Of a stretch of 64,000 nucleotides of DNA, positions 5,930 through 57,699 are shown in pieces. Below the pieces are notes generated by a model. That model was not told the origin of the DNA. It saw only the letters and a list, made by a program, of their open reading frames with translations, and did no database searches. The DNA is from Eledone cirrhosa (lineage: Eukaryota): contig OZ024742.1 of the NCBI GenBank assembly GCA_964016885.1, forward strand, positions 67,456,001 through 67,520,000, written 5' to 3'. Every line of letters starts with the position of its first letter. Position 1 is the stretch's first letter. The position numbers were made by a program, and so were the translations under genes.

Positions 5930-5991
<62 letters not shown>

Positions 5992-6248
5992 TTGCGAGGT
6001 TTTTTATATGAAATCGTGTGTCCAGACAAATATTTTTCTACTTGGGGAGGGTCATATTTGTGTAATATTGCCAGAATTAATAACAGAACACACTCACTGT
6101 TTGGTTGGTTTTCGCTTTTCGCTTCTGTGTCTTTTATATCGGTAATCTAATATAATATAATATACTCGGTCCTCAATGTTGCCATTGACTGACCGACGGT
6201 CAAAAATAATACAGATACAATATAGACACAAACACATATATATAGTTT

Positions 6249-6290
6249 ATCATAAATCTTTCGTTGCACATCTGCAACATCGTCAGTGGT
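6249..6290 (-). ncRNA. Minimal hammerhead ribozyme in PLE-A pLTR
   Basis: Reverse complement of 11947-11988. Confidence 0.7.
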
Positions 6291-6605
6291 TCTATTGTTT
6301 CCTCCTGTTGAATTGTATGGCTACGCCATTTTTATTCAGTCTGTTTATATATTTATTTATTTATTTGCTTGTTTGTTTATTTTATTTTGTCTTCTTTGCG
6401 CATGCGTTTGCGTGTGTGTATAGTGTTTTGTTTGATGTGTGATGTGTGTTCGTGATTGGGTGACTAATGTGTGTTTATGTGTTTGTTGTTATAGTGCTTG
6501 TGTATGTATTTATTTATTTATTTATTTATTTTATTTTATTTTATTTTATTTACTTATTTATACTTCTCTTAGGTCAGTGTTGTTTGTTTGGGTGTTGTTG
6601 TTATT

Positions 6606-9435
6606 TCATTCATTCTTTCTGTTTAGTCTTGGTCTTCTAATTTCTATTTCACTGGCCTCTCTGATTTGCCTATCTGCTGGGTAATTTCTATGTTTAGATA
6701 TTATTCTAATTTCTATGTTGTCTATGTTACCGTCATGTTGTTGTCTGGCATGTTGGTATAGTACTGAACCGTTATTTCGTCCTTTTAGTTCCCCCCAGTG
6801 TTGGTCTATCCTTTCACCTATGCTACGAGCTGTCTCACCTATGTATGTTGTTGTCATGTTTCTGCAGGTACCCTCTGTACATCTCATGCTATAGACTACG
6901 TTTCTAGTTTTACAGTTTATCCGGGGGTTTACCTTACATATGATACATTTCCTATTGGTACAGTGGGTTTTCTTAAAAGGGTAGGTTTTGCTGATCAGGG
7001 ATTTTATGGTGGTTCCTGGCTTTTCTACCACCTTAATTTTTAAGTGGGTCTTTCTCAGGGCCTATTTACACTGGTTAGCTAATTTCCCTCCAGGGGTAGC
7101 GTCCACAAACATGACACTCTGGTATATCTGGTTGTCGTACCAATTGGTGGCTTTCCCTATCTTATGTCTAGCCCTATCTAAGCTATTCCATGATTTGCTC
7201 CTGTATAATGGGCAAATTCCTTTCATGTCCAGTTCTATGAGGGTCTTATACTTCTCCAAGGCTCCTTCGTATACTCTGACTCTGTCTCTTTGGTTGTAGC
7301 CAGAGAACTGCATGCGGTTGATGAAGTGTTGGATGTGTATTTCCATTTCTGTTGGGTCGCAAATGCGGGATACATTCTTCATCACTCGTACCAAATCTGC
7401 GATCAAAATATTAAACTTAGCACTACTGGACATTGCTGAGTTTTTGAGTATCAGGTATTTGGAGGCCATGGGTTTAGTATAGTGTGAGTGGAGAATTTGG
7501 GCTATCTCATCTAAAGTGTTAATCCAGAGTTCTGTGTCTAATACAGGTAGTCTATTGTTAGGGTGTTTGGAACGGAAGTCGATAGTTACAGTTATACTCT
7601 GGTGTATGGAATTAGCTATCTGCTGGATGCTTTCCATTGTGCTACGTTCTAAATCAAACTTGTTAGTGCTCTCTCTCTAGTGGGGATGTTCTTATAACTA
7701 TATTGATATCGTCTACATAACGAGAGTACATGATGAGGTCTATGGAGCTCTCATTAAGGAGATATTTAAGTCTACTTTCCCACCATACCATGAAAAGGTT
7801 GGCAACATCACCAGCTATGCTGACGCCAATGGCTGCTCCTTCATTCTGGGTGTAGATCTTCTCGTTGAACTTAAATATGTGGCCCTTGAGGGTAGTTTTG
7901 ATACTAGCCCCTATTGCATGTGCGACCATTTTTCTTACCTGATCATTGTTTTGGGGGGTCCGTATAGCTTTGGTCCACCCAATCCACCTTCCCATGGGAG
8001 TCTTTTTTGCCATTAAGGTTATGGTCGGGGGTCTACCCCTTATGGGTATACTAGGGCAGAAACGTCCAAGGTCGTAGCTGTCTAGGTAGTCAGTGTCGTA
8101 GGTAAGTCTAAGTAGGAGGCCCAGTTTGTCTGTGTCGATGTTGCAGAACTCCACCTCTCTCTCAATGATCATCTCCACACATCTTTTCACAGCAAAATCA
8201 ATGTTAATGGATGGGTACAGTGACACCACATCCATGCAGCCTATTATGCAGTTGGATAGGTTCCTGTTTTTGTTGCACTCACTGATTCTGCTGAGGAGGT
8301 CCTCTGTACTGTCACATACATCCGGGGACATCTTGATTATGGGGCGTATAACCATGGAGAGGAAGTAGTAGATCCTGTAGTTACTAGCTACATTAGCTCC
8401 GCATACGGGTCTTGTTGGTGGTCCTGTTGTCGGGTCGTCGACTGTCTTGTGGTCTTTGCGGAGCCCATAAAAGGGTGGTATGCCATTGTTAGACGCCTGG
8501 AAGTTGTTCACAGTGCGTCTGCTTGGCTTTAGGATATCAGTCCACATCATCATGTGAGCGTTGAGGATTTTCTCTCTCCCATCGTGTGTTTGTTGTGCAA
8601 TTTCGCTCGTGTTGGTGATGTGGGATTGCATAGCCTTGATGTAGTTCGGCAGGCTATCTATTGACATCCTACCAGACTTATCCGTGGGTAGACATACTGC
8701 CTCACCATCCCTTGTGCGCTGCTTGAGGCTAACCAAGCCTTCTACAGGTTTCCTCCCAAGTTGTTGGGACTCTGGTCTGCTCTGTCTCTCAGTATACCTG
8801 TCTACTATTTGTCTAATCTTATTTCTAGCTATGGTGAACTGTGCCTCTGTCTCGTTATCTATTTGTTGTGGTATGCAAACTCTTTTATTAAAGCGTAACC
8901 TCGTAGGATAGATATTACCCATCTTATATGTTTTGTCAGCTGGGTTGAAAAATAGTTTCTCTAAGGAGTTGTCATTATATCTATCGTCATAGTTGTGTGT
9001 GTTGCTATTATTGTTATCATGGTGGTTGTTGTTGTTCCTATCATTAGCATTATTATTATTGTAATGATTGCTAGATGTATTGTTGGTTACTTCACCGTTA
9101 TTGTTGTTGTTACTGTTATTTCTACCGTTGTGGTTGTTACTATTATTATGTTTCTTGTTTTTGTTGTGTCTATCATTAATGTTGCTACATGTATTATTTC
9201 CATTATTACCACTGTGGTTATTGTTGTTGTTGTTCGTATTGTTACCGTTATTACTACTGTGGTTGCTGCTGCTGTGTCTGTGGTTAATGTTTCTATTATT
9301 ATTGTGGTTGTTGTTGTTCTGTCTATCGTTAGTATTATTACCCTTATTACTATTTCTCACTTTCCTGTTATTTTTATTGTTATGGCTGTTATTTCTATAC
9401 TCAGAGTTATTGTTTATATTACTACTACCGTTATT

Positions 9436-9490
<55 letters not shown>

Positions 9491-10210
9491 GTTGTTGTTG
9501 TTGTTGTTTACCTTTGCATTCCAACGTATTTTTGTGAAACACTTTTCCAGCCCCGTTTTGCACTCCATAGGGTTAATCTTCTTGTAGATGGCAAATTTTG
9601 GTGGTAGCTGCAGGATTTGTTGTTCTTGTTCACTGATTAAAGTGTTCCCATAAATATTTACTGTGTGGTCATTGGTAAATTCTTCCGGTAGTTTTATATC
9701 AGTCATGCGGATATTGTCGATGTTATCTGGATATTTTTGAGAATATTCTATTTTCCTTTCTAGTAGTTTTTTTCTTATTCATCCATTCTAATTTCTTATT
9801 GAAGTGCCTATTGCATTGGTTTCGGGCGTATTTCGTTTCACGTCGGATGACGCTCATGAAGTTATCCCTCTCGTTTGGTGTGGTGAGATTTCGGACTTCC
9901 TTACCGTTAATGCGTTTCTGTCTGTAAAGTTCGTTGACTTTTGTGTATGTTGTTCTTTTCATATTAACTGTTATTGTGTGTTTTAGTCGTTCAGCTTGTG
10001 TTTTGTTCAATAATAAATTATTTACTTGTTTTGATATGTTTGTTGTGTATATTTTGGAGGAAACACAGTGTTTTAAGAAGCGGATTTGATCTGTTGTTAT
10101 TGTAGTTTTTATATAACAGAAATAACCTTTCAGCTTGGCACAAGCTAATGCCATAACGGCGATGAATTAGTTTTGCGAAGTTTTTTATATGAAATCGTGT
10201 GTCGAAACAC
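6606..10210 (-). pseudogene. PLE polyprotein (N-terminus, RT, thumb, Cys linker, GIY-YIG endonuclease), with stops and frameshifts
   Basis: PTDKSG, TRPVCG, MDVVSLYPSI, GAAIGVSIAG, RYVDDI, LPVLD, CTNRKCIIC linker, NVVY..C..YIGETARS..ERI..H. Confidence 0.9.
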
Positions 10211-10591
10211 ATAACCTCAATGGCAAAAAAGACTCCCATGGGAAGGTGGATTGGGTGGACCAAAGCTATACGGACCCCTGAAAACAATGATCAGGTAAGA
10301 AAAATGGTCGCACATGCAATAGGGGCTAGTATCAAAACTACCCTCAAGGGCCACATATTTAAGTTCAACGAGAAGATCTACTCCCAAAATGAAGGAGCAG
10401 CCATTGGCGTCAGCATAGCTGGTGATGTTGCCAACCTTTTCATGGTATGGTGAGAAAGTAGACTTAAAGATCTCCTTAATAAGAGCTCCATAGACCTCAT
10501 CATATACTCTCGTTATGTAGACGATATCAATATAGTTATAAGAACATCCCCACTAGAGGGCACTAACAAGTTTGATTTAGAACGTAGCACA

Positions 10592-11668
10592 ATGGAAAGC
10601 ATCCAGCAGATAGCTAATTCCATACACCAGAGTATAACTGTAACTATCGACTTCCGTTCCAAACACCCTAACAATAGACTACCTGTATTAGACACAGAAC
10701 TCTGGATTAACACTATAGATGAGATAGCCCAAATTCTCCACTCACACTATGCTAAACCCATGGCCTCCAAATACCTGATGCTCAAAAACTCAGCAATGTC
10801 CAGTAGTGCTAAGTTTAATATTCTGATCGCAGATTTGGTACGAGTGATGAAGAATGTGTCCCGCATGTGCGACCCAACAGAAATGGAAAGACACATCCAA
10901 CACTTCATCATCCGCATGCAGTTCTCTGGCTACAACCAAAGAGACAGAGTCAGAGTACACGAAGGAGCCATGGAGAAGTATAAGACCCTCATAGAACTGG
11001 ACATGAAAGGAATTTGCCCATTATACAGGAGCAAATCATGGAATAGCTTAGATAGGGCTAGACATAAGATAGGTAAAGCCACCTCATGGTACGACAACCA
11101 GAGATACCAGAGTGTCATGTTTGTGGACGCTACCCCTGGAGGGAAATTAGCTAACCAGTGTAAAAAGGCCCTGAGAAAGACCCACTTAAAAATTAAGGTG
11201 GTAGAAAAGACAGGAACCACCATAAAATCCCTGATCAACAAAACCTACCCTTTTAAGAAAACCCACTGTACCAATAGGAAATGTATCATATGTAAGGTAA
11301 ACCCCCGGATAAACTGTAAAACTAGAAACGTAGTCTATAGCATAATATGTACAGAGGGTACCTGCAGAAACATGACAACAACATACAGAGGTGAGACAGC
11401 TCGTAGCATTGGTGAAAGGATAGACCAACACTGGGGGGAACTAAAAGGACGAAAAAAAGGTTCTGTACTATACCAACATGCCAGACAACAACATGACGGT
11501 AACCTAGACAACATAGAAATTAGAATAATATCTAGACATAGAAATTACCCAGCAGATAGGCAAATCAGAGAGGCCAGTGAAATAGAAATTAGAAGACCAA
11601 GACTAAACAGAAATAATGAATGGAATAACAACACCCAAACAAACAACACTGACCTAAGAGAAGTATAA
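10592..11668 (+). CDS. PLE C-terminal ORF (RT thumb + GIY-YIG) in the inverted arm; 5'-truncated
   Basis: 358-aa ORF nearly identical to the minus-strand fragments; YIG reads YRG; upstream RT fragment 10211-10590 has a stop. Confidence 0.8.
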   Translation: MESIQQIANSIHQSITVTIDFRSKHPNNRLPVLDTELWINTIDEIAQILHSHYAKPMASKYLMLKNSAMSSSAKFNILIADLVRVMKNVSRMCDPTEMERHIQHFIIRMQFSGYNQRDRVRVHEGAMEKYKTLIELDMKGICPLYRSKSWNSLDRARHKIGKATSWYDNQRYQSVMFVDATPGGKLANQCKKALRKTHLKIKVVEKTGTTIKSLINKTYPFKKTHCTNRKCIICKVNPRINCKTRNVVYSIICTEGTCRNMTTTYRGETARSIGERIDQHWGELKGRKKGSVLYQHARQQHDGNLDNIEIRIISRHRNYPADRQIREASEIEIRRPRLNRNNEWNNNTQTNNTDLREV

Positions 11669-11692
11669 ATAAGTAAATAAAATAAAATAAAA

Positions 11693-11731
<39 letters not shown>

Positions 11732-11946
11732 ATACACAAGCACAATAACAACAAACACATAAACACACATTAGTCACCCAATCACGAACACACATCACAC
11801 ATCAAACAAAACACTATACACACACGCAAACGCCTGCGCAAAGAAGACACAATAAAATAAACAAACAAGCAAATAAATAAATAAATATATAGACAGACTG
11901 AATAAAAATGGCGTAGCCATACAATTCAACAGGAGGAAACAATAGA

Positions 11947-11988
11947 ACCACTGACGATGTTGCAGATGTGCAACGAAAGATTTATGAT
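11947..11988 (+). ncRNA. Minimal hammerhead ribozyme in PLE-A pLTR
   Basis: acca-CTGACGA-t-GTTGCA gatg TGCAAC-GAAA-gatt-TA-tgat; stem I weak. Confidence 0.7.
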
Positions 11989-12227
11989 AAACTATATATA
12001 TGTGTTTGTGTCTATATTGTACCTGTATTATTTTTGACCGTCGGTCAGTCAATGGCAACATTGAGGACCGAGTATATTATATTATATTAGATTACCGATA
12101 TAAAAGACACAGAAGCGAAAAGCGAAAACCAACCAAACAGTGAGTGTGTTCTGTTATTAATTCTGGCAATATTACACAAATATGACCCTCCCCAAGTATA
12201 ACAATATATATATATATATATATATAT

Positions 12228-12749
12228 AGTGTATTTTGCAATACACTGTATGCTTAATTAAAAGCATTTCGAACACCTTACGCTATTGTTTTAGAGTAGT
12301 GACAGTCTCACTTACTTTAAATTTTTAGTAAACAGGGGAGATAAAGCTGACAGATCTCTGTTTCGTACTTTTTGGTACTTATAAAAGCTAACTACTCCAC
12401 CTGTTTGCTGAAAATCATGAATGTTTGATTCTTATAGAATTCTAGTAATAATCAGGAACTGATTATACAGAGCGGTTGCCTGATTATTACTAGAATTCTA
12501 TAAGAATCAAACATTCATGAATTTCTGCAAACAGGTGGAGTACTTAACTTTGATAAGTACCAAAAAGTACGAAACAGATCTCTCTCAGCTTTATCTCCCC
12601 TGTTTGCTGAAAATTTAAATTAAGTGAGACTGTGACTACTCTAAAACAATAGCGTAAGGTCTTCGAAATGCTTTTAATTAAGCATACAGTGTATTGCAAA
12701 ATACACTATATATACATTCTTATATATATCGCTATTTCAAAGCACCAAT

Positions 12750-12752
<3 letters not shown>
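12228..12752. mobile_element. Fold-back retrozyme-like element, ~320-nt family (U3-A8 HHR)
   Basis: Arms 12228-12456 and 12479-12710 are inverted; HHR motifs at 12345-12389 (-) and 12546-12590 (+); homologous to 36644-37258 and 53454-53962. Confidence 0.8.
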
Positions 12753-13629: not shown

Positions 13630-15290
13630 TCTTTCCAGCGGGACCTGTCAGAAGGAACTGTCTCCAGCTGATCCGGCTGGATCCCCAAGCGAGACCAGCT
13701 AGGCTCAAGAATTTTATCCAGGCATTATGCCCAGGATCTACCCCTGAATCTCCTGCCTGTTGGTTCTACCCGTAACATCTAACCGAATGCCTATAATTTC
13801 GGAGCTGTGATCTCTCAATTCGGGGAAGTAGCGGCTCTACGTGGAATGATTACCTGAGCTCCGAGCTACGCACTCCATTGAGTAACGTTACTCCAAAACC
13901 CTTCGGAGGAACACATTTTCGACTGCTTGTATTCGTGATCGTATTCTTTCGGCATTACCCAAGATTCATGACAATAGGAAACGGTTGGCACAAAGACCGA
14001 ATTGAAAATAGCGTGTCTGGCTCTTACGCCTACTTCTATTCTTCTGATTACTGAATGCTAAAATATTACTGCACCAGCGCCTACAATTCTTACATTTAAT
14101 TTACCCTCCTGATTCGATCACTCGTGAATACGGCCACGTGATACTTCAAATTCTCTACCAGCTTCGGCAGGAACTCCATTTCAATATAGACGCAGTGCAC
14201 AGTGTTCCTTGAGAGGACGAGTATCTCAGTTTTCGCAGATCTGATTTTAGTTCCAACCATGCAACAATCGGCATCGATCCTACCGAGAGCAAGTCGAAGA
14301 CGAATATCTGCCGAATTAAAAAACACTATCTTGTTTCCAAATTCCAGTCGACTGATTTTACACACGCTAGTCATGATACCACTTCCAACCCGGTTGCGCA
14401 TGTCAAACCTGTTCATGTAAATAATGAATGGGATAGGTGATAGTAGGCACCCTTGGCGTATTCCGACTACCACCTTAAATGATTTCGAGTTAGCACCATT
14501 CATCCGAACACAAATATTCGGGCATTGTATAGAGATATCAGGGTAGCAGGAAGCTGACCATCGATCCCGTACTCCAGCAGACCCTTCCACAGCAGGTCTC
14601 TAGGAACGTGGTCATATGCGTTTTCAATGTGAAGTAAACAAGATCATACCTCCTGACAATACTCCCACGATTACTCGAAGACCTGTCACAGTGTGAATAT
14701 TTGGTCGGCTGTGCTATATCCGGGGCAAAAGCCACACTGTATCAGCTAGATTGGACTCGACAAACTCCCTGGATCTCTTTGCCAGACACTTATTATAGAC
14801 TTTACCGGGGGGCGCTTAACGAGGTGATCCTTCTGTAATTGGAACAATCTTTCTTGTCACCATTTTTGAAAATTGAGATTATCACTTCCGATTGCCATTG
14901 CATAGGTGCCTTTCCTGAGATCCGGGCTACACGGCATTCATGAGTCAGCCAGAGAATACCTTCTCTATTTAAGAGGTTTAATACCTCAGTCTGGATTTCA
15001 TCTTCCCCAGCGGCGTTGCCACATTTGAGCTCATAACTGCTCTTCTGACCTCAGTCTCTGAAAGATTACACGTTGCTTCCAGATGGACTTCCTATACAGC
15101 AGAATATGCTGTTGTGATCGGGTTTAGGAGATCAGCAAAGTATTATTCCCACCTCGTGGGGATGCACTTCTCTGAAGAGAGGAGAACCCCAGACGCGTTT
15201 TTGATAGCCGGTATGGAGGAGGGCTTCTTATTATGAAGTCGTTGGATGTTCTACAAGAACACTTTATTTGCTGATCTGAAGTCGGATTCT
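13630..15290 (-). mobile_element. Degenerate RTE-clade (Rex3/Expander-like) LINE, 5'-truncated
   Basis: VRMNGANSKSF..VGIRQGCLLSPIPFIIYM and KIRSAKTEILVLSR in ORF 14096-14590; boundaries approximate. Confidence 0.75.
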
Positions 15291-16244
15291 AGCTTAACCG
15301 CAAATACCTCCCATGTGTTAAATTTGGTGTCTCTGGTTTTTGTGAAAAACAGAATTTATACAGACACTCAGAAAATAAAGATTTCAGATCGGATTTAGAG
15401 GACAGAAAAACACTCAAAGTTGGTTGGTAACAAGGAAAAACAGAGTAACGTATGATGAATTTTGATGCCACCTCAATTGAAATTTGAACGACTGCGCATC
15501 CCCTGAAGCAAACATTGAAATATTCTGATAGAATCAATTCAAAATTGAAGATATCACTTTTTATGTCTCTTATTCTCTTATTCTCTCTCATATTTTTTAA
15601 TGCCTGATTATCTACTTGGTCTATATTTCCCCCTTTCTTTACTGCTTTTCTCTCATTCTCTTTTCTCTCATTCATTCATTTATTATCTCATCTCCACTTA
15701 ATTTAAAATGAAACCTGCAGCTGGAAATATAAAGTAAAAATTGTAAATCATACGTCACAAATTTGTAGTGTATTAAATTATGTAACATATAACTAAAGTG
15801 AATACCAGCACTGCCTTATGCAGCAAAATAATATGCTCCGGTATAACGAAGCCAAACTACTTGTCTACTGTCGATTCAATTTACCATATGTAACTCGAGA
15901 ATATAAATACTTTAAACATATTTACAACAACGTAATCAGCAGCAATATAAAGGCACATGTATTCAAATGGGTAGCAACGTGTGCAGAAAAACTAATAAAA
16001 GAAAATAGTTTCCATATATAGAACAAATTATATTTTTGAAATATATGTCAGGAAGATTTAGGTCACGCAAAATGAAGTCAAGTATATTTGATGCATAGTT
16101 GTTTAGAAAAGTGCTGAAACTAATATTGTTTTCTGAAATACGCTAATGTCATTTTCACTATTAGTTATTTTAATAAAATACTGTTTTAAATGATGTTTTA
16201 ATAAACGCTATTTTAAATGGATTTAAATTTATTTGTATTTATCA

Positions 16245-16775
16245 GAGTATACAAAAAGCCACGGAGATATATAAGACCGTCATAGAAATGGACATGAAAG
16301 GAATTTGGACATTATACAGGAGCAAATCATGGAATAGCTTATATAGGCTTAAGCATAAGATAGAGAAAGCCACTTCAGGCTACGACAACCAGAGTGTCAT
16401 GTTCGTGGATGCTACCCCTACAGGAAAATTAGCTAAGCAATTTAGAAAGGCCATAACAAAGATCCATCTAAAGATTAAAGTGGTAGAAAAGCCAGGAACT
16501 ACCATAAAATCCCTGATCACAAGACATACCCCTTTAAGAAAACCCAGTGTACGAATAATAAATGTAGTCTATAACATAAGATGTACAGAGGCTACTTGCA
16601 GAAACATGACAACAACATACATAGGTGAAACAGCTCGAAGCATAGGAAAGCAATACTGGGGGGGACTAAAAGGACAAAAGATGGTTCAGTACTATATGAA
16701 CACGCCAGACAATGACATGACGGTAATATAGACAGCATAGAAATTAAAATAATATCCAAGCATAGAAATTACTCA
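16245..16775 (+). mobile_element. PLE family A fragment (GIY-YIG region), diverged
   Basis: ORF 16288-16731 matches the 10592-11668 protein (SVMFVDATP, YIGETARS). Confidence 0.85.
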
Positions 16776-16799
16776 ACATTATCGCTTGGGGTTTATTGC

Positions 16800-17133
<334 letters not shown>

Positions 17134-17202: not shown

Positions 17203-17385
17203 AATAATTGTTTCTACTTTTGGCACAAGGCCACCAATTATCCCAGTGTATTACTGGTACTTTATTTTATCGACCCCGTAAGGATGAAAGGCAAAGTTAA
17301 CCTCGGTGTGAGTTGAACTCTGACCGTAAAAGGCCGTAACTCTGTGCTGCAAAGCATGGCGTTCGACCCTCAAACGATTACTTTG
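17203..17385 (-). mobile_element. tRNA-derived SINE (octopus OR/Nin-domain-like)
   Basis: Conserved core tttgcctttcatcctt.cggggtcgataaa..aagtacca; B-box gagttcaa; several copies in the window. Confidence 0.85.
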
Positions 17386-30321: not shown

Positions 30322-30414
30322 CTAATAAATTCCTGTATAAAAGCACTTTCATTTTAAATTCATCTTTTCTATATATATATATATATATATAAGAAATGTG
30401 TTATATGTAAAGTA

Positions 30415-31078
30415 AAGCCCCAGATAAAATGTAAAACTAGAAATGTAGTCTATAGCATAAGATGTACAGAGGGTACTTGCAGAAACATGACAACAACATA
30501 CATAGGTAAGACAGCTCGAAGCTTAGGTGAAAGAATAGACCAACACTGGAGGGTTTTTAAAAGGACAAAAAACGGTTTAGTACTATACGAACACGCTAGA
30601 TAACAGCATGACGGTAACATAGACAAGATATAAATTAAAATAATATCTAAACATAGAAATGACCCAACAGGTAAGTAAATCAGAGAAGCAAGCGAAATAA
30701 AGGTTAGAAAGCCAAAGCTAAACAGAAAAAAATGAATGGAATAACAACACCCAAACAAACAATACTGACTTAAGAGAAACATAAATAAATAAATAAATAA
30801 ATAGACAAGCACAATACACTACAAACACATATAATCACATACTAATAAACTAAGATATAATACAATAACCAAAATACAATCACCCAAACGCGAATACATA
30901 CGCCAAACACTATACACACACGCAAACGCATACGCAGAGACGAAGAAAAAAAATAAAATAAATAAATAAATAGATAAAATAAAAATGGCGTAGACATACA
31001 ATAAAACAGGCGGAAACATAATAGTACCACTGATGATGTTGCAGATTTGCAACGAAAGAATTTTGTTAGACTATATAT
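30415..31078 (+). mobile_element. PLE family A 3' fragment (GIY-YIG end, 3'UTR, HHR at ~31026-31068)
   Basis: Colinear with 11310-11995; ctgatgatgttgcagatttgcaacgaaa. Confidence 0.85.
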
Positions 31079-31094
31079 ATATGTATTTATATCT

Positions 31095-31572
31095 ATTCAA
31101 AATGAAATTAAGGGTGTCATGCCCGAGATATGCGCCATATCCACTGTAGAATATGCTCAAAGATCCGAACATTTTATATCAACTAGAAATTGATTGACAT
31201 ATATATATATATATAATAAACACATGGAAAAATCACAGGGGATAACTTGTAAAGTGTGTAAGCACAGACAGCTAGCCAGGTAACTAATTAAAGTTTACTA
31301 GAACTTCAAAAATAGATACCTTTTAAAATGATTAATCTCCCTTGTATATATTTCATTAAAGAAATATATTTCACCATTAATCCGTAAACTCACAGTAGTC
31401 AAATCCCGTATTTTCAACAAGGGAGAATATTTAACTATCTATGTTTACACAGCAAATGCAAATCTGCGAATGACCCGTCGCACGTGTTGCATTTTAAAAA
31501 AAATACACACATCTCTTCTACAGTGGATATGGCGCATGTCTCGGACATGATACCCTTAATTTAATTTTGGAT
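31095..31572. mobile_element. MITE-like element with ~55-bp terminal inverted repeats
   Basis: 31095-31150 versus 31517-31572 inverted (aattaagggtgtcatg..gcgccatatccactgtaga); TA-rich flanks. Confidence 0.6.
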
Positions 31573-36438: not shown

Positions 36439-36643
36439 GTTGTTTTCATACGCGTTTTGCTGCTACCACTGTTGTAGTGACTACTTCATACTACTCTATA
36501 TATAAATATATGGTGTATGGAGTAGCAGTACATCGGTCTTTCATAACGTTTATAATATTCCGTCTCTCATTTATTTCAAACATGAATTTATTTCAGCGAT
36601 TTCTTTTCTCCGTGTCAGCTATATATATATATATATATATATA

Positions 36644-37258
36644 TTAGAATTGGAGCTTTGAAATAGCAATATATATATGGATGTATATATAATGTATTTT
36701 GCAATACACTTTATGCTTAATTAAAAGCATTTTGAAGACCGTATGCTATTGTTTTAGAGTAGTGACAAATTCACTTACTTTAATCTCAGCAAACAGGGGA
36801 GATAAGCCACCAAGTCCTTGTTTCGCTTTTGTTGAAGCTTATCAAGGCTAACTACCCCTCCTGTCTACTGAGATTACTGATGTTATATTCTTATAGAATT
36901 CTAGTAAATAATCAGGAACTGGTTATACAGAGCGATTGTTGGTCAGGCAGAAATTAAAAATTAGAATTGGAGCTCTGAAATAGCAATACATATATGGATG
37001 TATATATAATGTATTTTGCAATACACTTTATGCTTAATTAAAAGCATTTTGAAGACCGTATGCTACTGGAATTCTATAAGAATATAACATCAGTAATCTC
37101 AGTAGACAGGAGGGGTAGTTAGCCTTGATAAGCTTCAACAAAAGCGAAACAAGGCCTTGTCGGCTTATCTCCCCTGTTAGCTGAGATTAAAGTAAGTGAA
37201 TTTGTCACTACTCTAAAACAATAGCATACAGTCTTCAAAATGCTTTTAATTAAGCATA
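36644..37258. mobile_element. Fold-back retrozyme-like element, 317-nt monomer (U3-A8 HHR)
   Basis: ttagaattggagct at 36644 and 36961 (period 317); inverted segment 37066-37258; (TA)n flanks. Confidence 0.85.
37121..37165 (+). ncRNA. Minimal hammerhead ribozyme with U3-A8 core variant
   Basis: agcc-TTGATAA-gctt caacaa aagc-GAAA-caag gc cttg-TC-ggct; the inverted copy 36805-36849 has a mutated cleavage triplet. Confidence 0.85.
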
Positions 37259-43998: not shown

Positions 43999-44156
43999 AA
44001 GAAAAGTGTGTACAGTTAAGAAAGAAAATAATATTTGTAAAAGAATGTTATTACATTTTTTGTGAAAATAATATTTTAATCATATTTTCTTTAGTTTTCT
44101 CTAGAGAATTATATTTTAGATAATGAAAGTTTGAGATACAAAAACTATTGTCAACA

Positions 44157-44553
44157 AATTATAAGTGATATCATTAATGTTAGTATATATGCTTGCGAGG
44201 TTAATCAGTTCTCTCCCTTATAAATTGGTTCTAGTTCAGTACAGGGGTTTACATTTGGGTGACCGATTCAGCGTGCAAGCCCGTTCTATATACAGGGAGC
44301 TAATGTGTGTGTGTGTGCGTGCGTGTATGTGTTATGTATATGTATTGCACCAAATTATAAGTGATATCATTAATGTTAGTATATATGCTTGCGAGGTTAA
44401 TCAGTTCTCTCCCTTATAAATTGGTTCTAGTTTAGTACAGGAGTGTTAAATTTGGGTGACCGATTCAGCGTGTAAGCCCGTTCTATATACAGGGAACTAA
44501 TGTGTGTGTGTGTGTGCGCGTGCGTTTATGTGTTATGTATATGTATTGCACCA
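44157..44553. repeat. Direct tandem duplication, ~195-bp unit x2
   Basis: aaattataagtgatatcattaatg...gtatatgtattgcacc occurs twice. Confidence 0.9.
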
Positions 44554-53450: not shown

Positions 53451-53453
53451 CGA

Positions 53454-53962
53454 AAACATTTCGAAGACCTTATGCTATTCTTTTAGAGTAGTGACAGTCT
53501 CACTTACTTTAAATCCCCTGTTTGCTGAAAATGTTAAGTAAGTGAGACTGTCACTACTCTAAAACAATAGCATAAGGTCTTCGAAATGGTTTTAATTAAG
53601 CATACAGTGTATTGCAAAATACACTATATATACATTCATATATTTATCGTTATTTCAGAGCGCCAATTCTAATTTTCAATTTCTGCTTGACCGGCAACCC
53701 CTCTGAATAATCAGTTCCTGATTATTACTAGACATTCTATAAGAATCAAACATTCATGATTTTCAGCAAACAGGTGGAGTACTTGGCTTTGATAAGTACC
53801 AATCAGTAAGAAACATAGCTCTGTCAGCTTTATCTCCCCTGTTTGCTGAAAATTTAAAGTAAGTGAGACTGTCACTACTCTAAAACAATAGCATAAGGTC
53901 TTCGAAATGCTTTTAATTAAGGAGACAGTGTATTGCAAAATACACTATATATACATTCATAT
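53454..53962. mobile_element. Retrozyme-like element, ~320-nt family (U3-A8 HHR at 53785-53829, stem II damaged)
   Basis: Inverted 53454-53513, then tcccctgtttgctg at 53514 and 53835 (period ~321). Confidence 0.85.
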
Positions 53963-53972
53963 ATTATATATA

Positions 53973-54890: not shown

Positions 54891-55383
54891 TATATATATA
54901 TATATATATATATTTCGTTTCTGAATTTGTTTAGCAAGACTCTTTATCTGAAATCGTGTGTTGAAACCGATATTGTTATACTTTGGGAGGGTCATGTTGC
55001 CAATAAGAAACACACGCACCAGTTGCTTTCACTTCAATTTATTATATATTTATAAATTTATAAATTTACGAATCTACAAATTTATAAATTTCTGGTTGGT
55101 TGGTTGGTTCCACAACCATATAGTTGTTTATATATAGTCATAGTCCTTTCGTCACACACTCTGTGACATCTTCAGTGACTGGGGATTCCTTTCTTTGTTT
55201 CTGTGCTTTCCTTTCTTCTGTCCGACGCCATTTTGTTTCTGTGTGTGTGTTGTGTGCACAGTTTGCGCATGCGCCACATCCGGGTGCCTGTGTGTGTTTG
55301 TGTTCATTTATCTATTTGTTTATTTATTTACATGTTATTGGTTGGTTGTTTGTTCTATGTGTGTGTGTGTTTTCATTTTGTCC

Positions 55384-56046
55384 TTAATTGTAAGTTGTGA
55401 TGTTGCTGTTCCACTCATATTTTCTATTTAATTTTGGTTGTAATTCTTTTATGTTTATTGCCTCTGTAATTTGTCTAAACATTGCATCTTTTCTGTGTGT
55501 AGATTCTATTTTTATTTCTATGTTCTCTAATTTACCCTTGTGTTCTATCTTAGCATGTTGGTAGAGTACAGATGATTCTTTATTATCTTGAAGGTCTCGC
55601 CAGTGTTCATTTATCCGTTCCCCTATACTACGAGCTGTCTCACCTATGTACACTATATTTTTGTTTCTACATTGTCCTTCAGTACATCTTATGCTATACA
55701 CTACATTTCTAGTTTTACAGTTAATATGGGGACTTATTTTACAGGTTATACATTTCTTATATATACATGAGGGTCTTTGGAACGGGTATGTCTTGCTAAT
55801 AAGTGTTTTTACGGAGGTACCTGGTCTTTCTACTATCTTAATATTGAGTTTATGTTTATTTAGGGCCCTTCTAAATGTGTAGGCTAGTTCGCCTCTAGGG
55901 GTTGTATCGATGAACATTACACTCTGGTATTTATTGCTATCATACCATGAGTTTATTCTATTGGCCTTGTTCCTAGTTCTTTCTATTCTATTCCAAAATT
56001 TGCTCCTATACAAGGGGCAGGTCCCATTTATGTCATTATTTAACAT
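55384..56046 (-). CDS. PLE-B GIY-YIG C-terminal ORF (inverted arm)
   Basis: CIYKKCITC linker, NVVYSIRC, YIGETARSIGERINEH. Confidence 0.8.
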   Translation of the reverse strand: MLNNDINGTCPLYRSKFWNRIERTRNKANRINSWYDSNKYQSVMFIDTTPRGELAYTFRRALNKHKLNIKIVERPGTSVKTLISKTYPFQRPSCIYKKCITCKISPHINCKTRNVVYSIRCTEGQCRNKNIVYIGETARSIGERINEHWRDLQDNKESSVLYQHAKIEHKGKLENIEIKIESTHRKDAMFRQITEAINIKELQPKLNRKYEWNSNITTYN

Positions 56047-56139
56047 TTTATTTTTTTCCCCATTTGGTTCTGGCTCCTCTATACACTCTGATTCTATCTC
56101 TCTGTACCTAACCAGAGCTCTGTGTCTAGTACAGGTAAT

Positions 56140-57232
56140 CGATGAGACCAGTCAGGAACTAGAGAAAAACACAATGGAAAGCGTCCAGCAAATAGCAAAC
56201 TCCATCCACCAGAGCATTAGAGTTACTATAGACTACCCAAGTAGACACCCCAACCATCGATTACCTGTACTAGACACAGAGCTCTGGTTAGGTACCATTA
56301 ACAACCAAAAACAAATCCTCCATTCCCATTATGCCAAACCCATGACTTCCAAACATCTGATCCACAGAAACTCGGCCATTTCGGACCATACCAAAATCAA
56401 CATACTGATTGCGGATTTGATACGGGTGATGAGAAATGTGTCCCGCATGTGCAACCCCGAAGAACTAGAGAGACACATACAACACTTCATCCACCGTATG
56501 CAGTTCTCTGGCTACAATCAGAGGGATAGAATCAGAGTGTATAGAGGAGCCAGAACCAAATGGTAAAAAATGTTAAATAATGACATAAATGGGACCTGCC
56601 CCTTGTATAGGAGCAAATTTTGGAATAGAATAGAAAGAACTAGGAACAAGGCCAATAGAATAAACTCATGGTATGATAGCAATAAATACCAGAGTGTAAT
56701 GTTCATCGATACAACCCCTAGAGGCGAACTAGCCTACAAATTTAGAAGGGCCCTAAATAAACATAAACTCAATATTAAGATAGTAGAAAGACCAGGTACC
56801 TCCGTAAAAACACTTATTAGCAAGACATACCCGTTCCAAAGACCCTCATGTATAGATAAGAAATGTATAACCTGCAAAATAAGCCCCCATATTAACTGTA
56901 AAACTAGAAATGTAGTGTATAGCATAAGATGTACTGAAGGACAATGTAGAAACAAAAATATAGTGTACATAGGTGAGACAGCTCGTAGTATAGGGGAACG
57001 GATAAATGAACACTGGCGAGACCTTCAAGATAATAAAGAATCATCTGTACTCTACCAACATGCTAAGATAGAACACAAGGGTAAATTAGAGAACATAGAA
57101 ATAAAAATAGAATCTACACACAGAAAAGATGCAATGTTTAGACAAATTACAGAGGCAATAAACATAAAAGAATTACAACAAAAATTAAATAGAAAATATG
57201 AGTGGAACAGCAACATCACAACTTACAATTAA
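56140..57232 (+). pseudogene. PLE-B RT thumb + GIY-YIG, one in-frame stop at 56564-56566
   Basis: LPVLDTELW, SHYAKPM, YIGETARS; clearly homologous to family A. Confidence 0.85.
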
Positions 57233-57436
57233 GGACAAAATGAAAACACACGCACACATAGAACAAATAACCAACCAATAACATGTAAATAAATAAACAA
57301 ATAGATAAATGAACACAAACACACACAGACACCCGGATGTGGCGCATGCGCAAACTGAGCACACAACACACACACAGAAACAAAATGGTGTAGGACAGAA
57401 GAAAGGAAAGGCACAGAAACAAAGAAAGGAATCCCC

Positions 57437-57481
57437 AGTCACTGAAGAGGTCACAGAGTGTGTGACGAAAGGACTATGACT
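57437..57481 (+). ncRNA. Minimal hammerhead ribozyme in PLE-B pLTR (inverted copy at 55136-55180)
   Basis: agtca-CTGAAGA-g-GTCACA gagtg TGTGAC-GAAA-ggac-TA-tgact. Confidence 0.85.
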
Positions 57482-57639
57482 ATATATAAACAACTATCTG
57501 GTTGTGGAACCAACCAACCAACCAGAAATTTATAAATTTGTAGATTTGTAACTTTATAAATTTATAAATATATAATAAATTGAAGTGAAAGCAACTGGTG
57601 CGTGTGTTTCTTATTGGCAACATGACCCTCCCAAAGTAT

Positions 57640-57699
<60 letters not shown>

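Follow-up and report, generated by a model that had tools for sequence, protein, structure and literature searches.

Metazoan retrozyme units have been shown as circular RNA in coral, mussel and axolotl, with Penelope-like elements (PLEs) named as their likely helpers (PMC7229834; Cervera and de la Pena 2020). Li et al. 2026 (bioRxiv 10.64898/2026.07.22.740005) argue for PLE help from co-occurrence and from trees of pLTRs, and the word "tail" is not used in the part of that text that is accessible; they report that 24 of 57 Xenopus retrozyme families match transposable elements and that 8 of 9 Xenopus retrozyme dimers failed to cleave in vitro. The PLEs that carry an endonuclease (EN+) are marked by partial tandems, an inverted 5'-truncated partner, an optional tail of 30 to 40 nt at one end and (TA)n targets (PMC8557442, PMC3846280). 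Purified PLE enzyme cuts and extends both strands, and its reverse transcriptase (RT) starts at two internal sites, used on both strands, the spacing of which is the tail (PMC11167929). The same report, the sole in vitro study of a PLE, found the hammerhead dispensable: the Poseidon (Anolis) PLE favours unprocessed RNA, an active hammerhead is not required, and no ends of RNA-seq reads were found at the cut site of this PLE. Non-autonomous PLE dependants have been described in algae (PMC8557442). Circular PLE templates have already been proposed, with opposite-strand hammerhead pairs noted in truncated PLEs, Schistosoma PLEs have a U3-A8 hammerhead variant, and dimer cleavage is said to be possible through palindromic stem III loops (PMC4209133). 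Two open questions are addressed here, namely, by which route animal retrozymes enter genomes and whether circular or linear RNA is the PLE template.

The window, a 64-kb stretch of the Eledone cirrhosa genome, contains three copies of a short repeat (Table 1). Its reference unit, in ribozyme sense, is the reverse complement of positions 36644-36960 and is numbered q1-317. The unit measures 317 or 321 nt, has a low GC content (33-34%) and is non-coding, the longest ATG frame in either subfamily being 28 codons. The first-pass annotation had placed related copies at 12228, 36644 and 53454, two of them with 1.3 to 1.4 tandem units of periods 317 and ~321 and no ORF, and all of this was borne out: the copies starting at 36644 and 53453 hold 1.34 and 1.44 units, with direct repeats of period 317 (36638-36751 versus 36955-37068, 96%) and 321 (53507-53644 versus 53828-53965, 95%). 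Absent from that annotation were the inverted arms, the (TA)n target and the PLE partner. Every copy in the window is a head-to-head inverted structure, with arms 97% complementary at 36712-36906/37064-37258, 93% at 12206-12456/12479-12729 and 90% at 53446-53514/53531-53599; the arms of the focal insertion overlap by 5 nt at their junction. A crude test with patterns for the Pol III A and B boxes, the mark of a tRNA- or 7SL-type SINE, gave no match on either strand of the unit.

Table 1. Features of the retrozyme copies and coding PLEs in the window
Feature	Position	Strand	Remarks
Focal insertion, left arm	36644..37068	-	1.34 units in tandem at a 317-nt period; tail-class 3' end at 36644
(TA)n run adjoining the left-arm 3' end	36620-36644		
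Degenerate hammerhead core, left arm	36809..36845	-	Triplet GGU, not GUC, and stem III loop change (variants C146A, T151G, C152T)
Focal insertion, right (inverted) arm	37064..37258	+	0.62 unit; non-canonical 3' end at AT microhomology, then (TA)n
Intact type I hammerhead, right arm	37120..37166	+	U3-A8 core 37125-37131; activity is predicted only
Stem II; GAAA; palindromic stem III	37132-37145; 37146-37149; 37149-37160	+	
Predicted cut after GUC	37161	+	Extended stem I spans 37094-37189
Second copy	12206..12752	head-to-head	In the (TA)n flank of the coding PLE 5989-12207
Second copy, minus arm	12206-12478	-	No-tail end, merging into (TA)n run
Second copy, plus arm	12479-12752	+	Tail end
Third copy	53453..53969	head-to-head	
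Third copy, short minus arm	53453-53514	-	
Third copy, plus arm	53507-53969	+	Holds 1.44 units at a 321-nt period; ends in (TA)n without a tail
Remnant of older related family	16790..16990	inverted	Tail-type end before (TA)n
Coding PLE, candidate helper family	5989..12207	head-to-head	RT and C-terminal GIY-YIG, C-x4-C-x2-C linker; Neptune/Nematis type
Coding PLE, minus arm	10213-5989	-	Tail, in (TA)n
Coding PLE, plus arm	10210-12207	+	No tail, in (TA)n
Second coding PLE family	54913..57645	5'-truncated head-to-head pair	Tail and no-tail ends in (TA)n

The piece near 16800, at first taken for a fragment of the same family, belongs to an older related one and has 71% identity to the unit over 91 nt. 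It abuts a truncated PLE piece, to which it is antisense. Its interpretation as the untranslated region of the PLE fragment at 16242-16778 was rejected because 39 other copies of that PLE stretch lose the match at its end, and its membership in a separate, older repeat family also rules this out. Older relatives elsewhere (L084-L103; L192:4413-6281) are 85-92% identical to each other and about 70% identical to the young unit. Their layout, tandem and inverted, and their core variant are those of the young unit, which suggests that the lineage spread in several waves.

The sense strand of the unit carries a type I hammerhead with a UUGAUAA core (U3-A8 replacing C3-G8), a 4-bp stem II, a GAAA and a palindromic stem III, with a predicted cut after q152, at a GUC triplet, and with stem I prolonged by a 12-bp helix. 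An Rfam scan of the window returned 0 matches at the gathering score and missed this hammerhead, whereas the exact core pattern has 2,882 matches in the 3.0-Gb genome, against 1 for a reversed-pattern control. In an alignment of 17 related copies, 14 of them picked by the core pattern and one aligned poorly, 94.5% of the stem cells pair and 27 cells show changes in both partners, compared with 9.2 for shuffles and no more than 2 for slid-partner controls; whole pairs are swapped between the subfamilies in stems I, II and III. Such covariation implies that the predicted ribozyme is under selection for cutting. The identification as a retrozyme, made in the first pass, is supported by the core counts, the covariation and the short non-coding tandem unit. 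Judged by its sequence, the unit combines what characterizes metazoan non-LTR retrozymes, namely, a short tandem unit, a type I hammerhead and the lack of coding capacity.

The claim that the hammerhead is intact in mid-unit of the tandem copies had to be given up. In the tandem part of the 36644 copy, where the ribozyme reads on the minus strand, the triplet is GGU; stem II of the 53454 copy lacks its closing pair, and the 12228 copy has core or triplet changes in both ribozymes. The only hammerhead in the window copies predicted to be intact lies in the inverted arm at 37064-37258. The long extension of stem I and the further hairpins named in the first pass do appear in the predicted folds, which have z scores of −5.1 and −4.9. 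In circular mode the scores are −6.5 and −5.8, which indicates structure, not circularity, and the cleaved linear form folds lower than the circular one (−86 versus −79 kcal/mol).

DNA searches gave 1,337 and 1,831 candidates for the two subfamilies, 39 of each being scored, and the repeat is present at over a thousand places in the genome. The mapped set of 110 loci comprised the 60 best DNA matches, the first 30 pattern matches and 20 hand-picked places; removal of 15 duplicates and 4 side matches left 95 loci with 166 arms, a sample that favours long arms, as arm lengths were pushed upward by the queries. The 3' ends are canonical in 141 of the 166 arms and fall at two sites 25-35 nt apart: 64 are no-tail ends at q292, 77 are tail ends at q312-q10, chiefly q1 or q6, and 25 lie elsewhere. 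At 64 of the 95 loci, two arms lie head-to-head with both 3' ends outward, and 28 loci are single-arm copies. Where both ends are canonical (48 loci), a tail end is paired with a no-tail end in 44, three being tail-tail and one no-tail twice, while about half would be expected to be mixed by chance. A (TA)n run follows 68 of 77 tail ends and 47 of 64 no-tail ends (115 of the 141 canonical ends overall), compared with 3 of 25 other 3' ends and just 4 of 28 single-arm 5' junctions. The inner (5') ends are about uniformly spread round the unit (KS P = 0.09), the two arms often overlap by a few nucleotides at their junction, and arms range from 0.1 to 17 units, with more than one unit in 112 of 166. 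A complex word of 9 or more nt common to both flanks was found at 1 of 48 loci, (TA)n targets being such that target duplications are masked; in metazoan non-LTR retrozymes, such duplications exceed 4 bp when present.

The copies are therefore not circularly permuted, since their 3' ends are fixed and only the 5' ends vary: synthesis has fixed starts and variable stops. The earlier statement that copies start and stop at differing points of the monomer holds for the inner ends and fails for the outer ones, and the check proposed with it, a comparison of the copies with the unit for permuted ends, revealed no permutation across the 95 loci. Fixed ends like those of a MITE had been named as an observation that would speak against a retrozyme. 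The ends are indeed fixed, but they correspond to PLE tail and no-tail start sites in mid-monomer and are thus compatible with an internally primed circle. A MITE, a fold-back DNA transposon or a plain satellite, whose terminal inverted repeats would be the inverted arms, would explain these arms, the fixed outer ends and the TA-rich targets. It is nevertheless extremely unlikely, as the two outer ends differ by the tail, the inner ends are near uniform, arms span 0.1 to 17 units, 28 of 95 loci have a single arm and the ribozyme covaries; rather than matching inverted repeats around a core of fixed length, the copies present ends, lengths and junctions that vary.

Because the insertions share the tail/no-tail anatomy of PLEs in (TA)n, the unit is likely copied by a PLE enzyme, and its mobilisation by PLEs can be held with high confidence. 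The window itself contains a near full-length PLE at 5989-12207, about 90% identical to a full-length copy elsewhere and with an interrupted ORF. Its placement is provisional, the C-x4-C-x2-C linker being a mark of Neptune and Nematis (PMC8557442). Pfam retrieved nothing on whole PLE ORFs and a sub-threshold RVT_1 match on one part, and a PDB search of the PLE ORF gave weak RT matches. This family also ends at two sites, about 45 nt apart, in 18 and 6 of 53 contexts, the remaining contexts being 24 without a TA run within 70 nt and 5 that end elsewhere. The second family (54913-57645) has about 60% protein identity to the first, and an open frame of 1,213 amino acids with RT and GIY-YIG is present in a separate PLE (L054). 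At 4 of the 95 loci (L184, L185, L186, L187), the inner end of the retrozyme is joined directly to a PLE arm, head-to-head in three cases and collinearly in one, and these junctions are possible template switches; at L185, one end carries a retrozyme tail and the opposite one is a PLE end of the no-tail class. The four fused loci are suggestive of a link to PLEs and could also be due to chance, PLE DNA being near 22 of the 95 loci.

Further observations concern these PLEs. The copy at 5989-12207 has a long Asn-rich region upstream of the RT and a minimal C3-G8 hammerhead-like motif of its own near 11950-11980, within the terminal repeat. In many copies of the abundant PLE (e.g., L051:5975-5995 and L052), one stop interrupts the GIY-YIG region where a G run varies in length, whereas L054 reads through; the stop may represent a slippage hot spot, an assembly error or a non-autonomous subfamily. 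Additional PLE fragments lie at 30389-31096 and 16242-16778, and PLE DNA makes up roughly 15% of the window as a sum of matches. In the flanks of five loci (L007, L019, L109, L112 and L141), another repeat has two end points at (TA)n, separated by about 28 nt, and is possibly a further PLE-type family with a tail.

Comparison of the unit with the PLEs gave no blastn match to the copies L051-L055. Local alignments with the ends of the second family are at shuffle level, and those with the ends of the first score above most shuffles (4, 7 and 0 of 200), although they contain many gaps and cross TA tracts. The unit is therefore not convincingly homologous to the termini of either coding PLE family compared, and sequence does not single out a helper. 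That only two coding families were covered leaves room for the copies to be truncated pLTRs of an autonomous PLE yet to be found, and not a self-standing family; tail and no-tail ends and inverted arms are indeed pLTR features (PMC8557442, PMC3846280). We consider this very doubtful, because the units abut at a period of 317-321 nt without an intervening ORF, more than one unit is present in 112 of 166 arms, no locus continues into a matching ORF, save the four junctions to unrelated PLE families, and coding capacity is absent from all of the several subfamilies, whose identity ranges from 99% to about 70%. An ancestral origin of the unit from a pLTR is possible.

The predicted folds place a domain of three hairpins, closed by a 7-bp helix, at q211-q299. 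The no-tail site is located just inside the 3' edge of this domain, in an AU run, and the tail site just outside. Modelled in this way, the AU run could pair with a (TA)n primer, and the domain is a likely RT-binding element.

The start of synthesis lies 140-175 nt downstream of the cut, and arms copied from a cleaved linear monomer would accordingly stop at q153. The cut is crossed by 151 of 166 arms, twice or more by 63, and 6 of the 166 5' ends lie within 5 nt of it, against 5.7 expected. Among the shorter arms, which are not query-selected, 45 of 51 reach the cut and 1 of these 45 stops there. The cut is thus read through with no pile-up of ends, which argues that the template was either ligated or uncut. 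RT jumping end-to-end between cleaved linear monomers would likewise produce tandem cDNA with the cut read through, with no circle involved and with some mixing of variants within a locus, but run-off at the cut in just 1 of 45 arms and the lack of a clear excess of changes within 3 nt of it (substitutions of 1.9% versus 1.1% in subfamily A and 3.2% versus 2.5% in subfamily B, on small counts) make this route most improbable.

Between ligated and uncut templates, and given PLE mobilisation, the balance is tipped to a fair degree towards a circular one, because the ribozyme appears to be under selection, so that cut ends should exist, because variants are mostly locus-wide and because long arms consist of units of equal divergence. 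The variants that distinguish subfamilies mostly occur in all units of both arms of a locus. The 14 units of L166, which begin at a canonical 3' end, diverge by 13% whatever their separation (rho −0.13) and have a near-star spectrum, and divergence is likewise flat in the 6 units of L164; L165 (17 units) and, less so, L166 show an excess of multi-unit variants over a uniform star. The argument from long arrays to rolling-circle copying was retained only in part: L170, L019 and L118 present one-period duplications at the DNA level after insertion, so an RT origin is not required. Of the first-pass proposal that RT ran more than once round a ligated circle, copying over several turns stands, and the argument from permuted ends does not.

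PLE-driven insertion from an uncleaved linear multimer, transcribed from long genomic arrays with a hammerhead that is rarely active or acts at another step, is an unlikely source of these arms, though one with evidence in its favour. Variants present in exactly two of at least three units fall in the same monomer of opposite arms in 7 of 12 cases, with 4 expected (P = 0.066; cut-site register, 36 loci, long arrays left out, 10 other variants being in all units); an earlier version of the test gave 8 of 14 (P = 0.058). This hints at a multi-unit template or at conversion between arms. DNA-level duplication of units can build long source arrays, and unprocessed RNA was the main in vitro substrate of the Anolis PLE, at whose cut no read ends (PMC11167929). 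Several points speak against such a multimer: the stems covary across subfamilies, which implies selection for cutting; 5' ends, which multimers cut in part should deposit at the cut, do not pile up there; and the star-like arms of 6 and 14 units need a homogeneous template. Moreover, without a circle, arm length only shrinks with each generation unless arrays regrow. Five locus pairs have both inner ends matching within 3 nt, where about 2 are expected by our own estimate. Inheritance was considered for the exact pair L010/L026 and set aside; its inner ends fall on the stem I palindrome and are read as microhomology.

Contigs of four sequencing runs of unrecorded kind contain pieces in 25, 12, 7 and 23 of 30 bins and are uninformative on strand, ends and circle. 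One run (X6) is labelled with a different organism; its contigs cover 23 of the 30 bins, mostly at 90-95% identity, and its source is a related species or a mixed sample.

Overall, the repeat is probably a non-autonomous retrozyme with PLE-type insertion anatomy, copied in trans by a Penelope-type enzyme from circular monomer RNA. Tandem copies would be transcribed, and the predicted hammerhead, alone or as a dimer through its palindromic stem III, would release monomers of ~320 nt, which a host ligase would close into circles, as in other animal retrozymes. The insertion anatomy suggests that the GIY-YIG domain of the PLE cuts both strands of a (TA)n run and that each end primes RT inside the RNA, one at the no-tail site about 140 nt past the cut and the other at the tail site 25-35 nt further on. 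As seen in the copies, the arm would then run back through the cut, usually for 0.5 to 2.5 turns and up to 14 to 17, before a variable stop, and the two arms would join head-to-head, often with an overlap of a few nucleotides. Some arrays, as at three loci, would later gain a unit by duplication at the DNA level. Chances are about even that PLE RT performs rolling-circle copying of a viroid-sized RNA circle from two internal sites at both (TA)n ends, for up to 14 turns, the circle having no sequence kinship to its helper and parasitising PLEs by mimicry of their start sites. If true, this would also explain PLE tandems and tails generally.

The Eledone cirrhosa unit resembles metazoan non-LTR retrozymes (PMC7229834; Li et al. 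2026) in being non-coding, low in GC and of the 170- to 400-nt class, with one type I hammerhead per unit, a strong fold, tandem copies, thousands of copies per genome and co-resident PLEs. It differs from them in the U3-A8 core and the 4-bp palindromic stem III. Its copies differ as well: most lie head-to-head, a tail end being paired with a no-tail end in (TA)n, and target duplications are not detectable. Unlike the Xenopus families that match transposable elements (24 of 57), the unit is without convincing homology to the pLTRs of two co-resident PLEs, and in contrast to the retrozymes seen as circular RNA (PMC7229834), it is known here from genomic copies. Like EN+ PLEs of the Neptune, Nematis and Naiad type (PMC8557442, PMC3846280, PMC11167929), it occurs as partial tandems with a 5'-truncated partner in inverted orientation, may have a tail at one of its ends, targets (TA)n and has a hammerhead upstream of the start sites, but it has no ORF, and its tail measures 25-35 nt, compared with about 45 nt in the co-resident PLE. 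While the Anolis PLE starts at non-homologous sites (PMC11167929), the no-tail site of the unit lies in an AU run that would be able to pair with a (TA)n primer. The Chlamys MRC1-like elements (PMC8557442) are similar in being non-autonomous PLE dependants with pLTRs and multicopy head-to-tail insertions. The hammerhead of the Schistosoma mansoni PLE Cercyon (PMC4209133) has the same covariation of the U3-A8 core; its motif is minimal, located in PLE termini and mostly single, whereas the unit carries the full three-stem motif in every repeat.

The kind of element is thus already known, and what the present copies contribute is unusually direct evidence of PLE mobilisation. PLE help has so far been argued from co-occurrence and pLTR phylogeny, and here the insertion scars match the two-start-site signature in thousands of young copies. 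Paired tail and no-tail head-to-head insertions of a retrozyme were not found described in the literature, as far as its accessible text goes and outside subscription papers, supplements and Repbase. A 320-nt substrate and a PLE with an open frame of 1,213 amino acids in one genome make the question of circle versus linear template testable in vitro.

The window contains other repeats. Two tandem copies of a 196-nt unit, 93% matching, lie at 44146-44553, with no blastn relation to the retrozyme unit. A very common short repeat is present at 17213-17300 and in many locus flanks; we take it to resemble octopod SINEs, the host group being a guess. On the minus strand, positions 14000-15360 look like a decayed LINE-type RT coding stretch.
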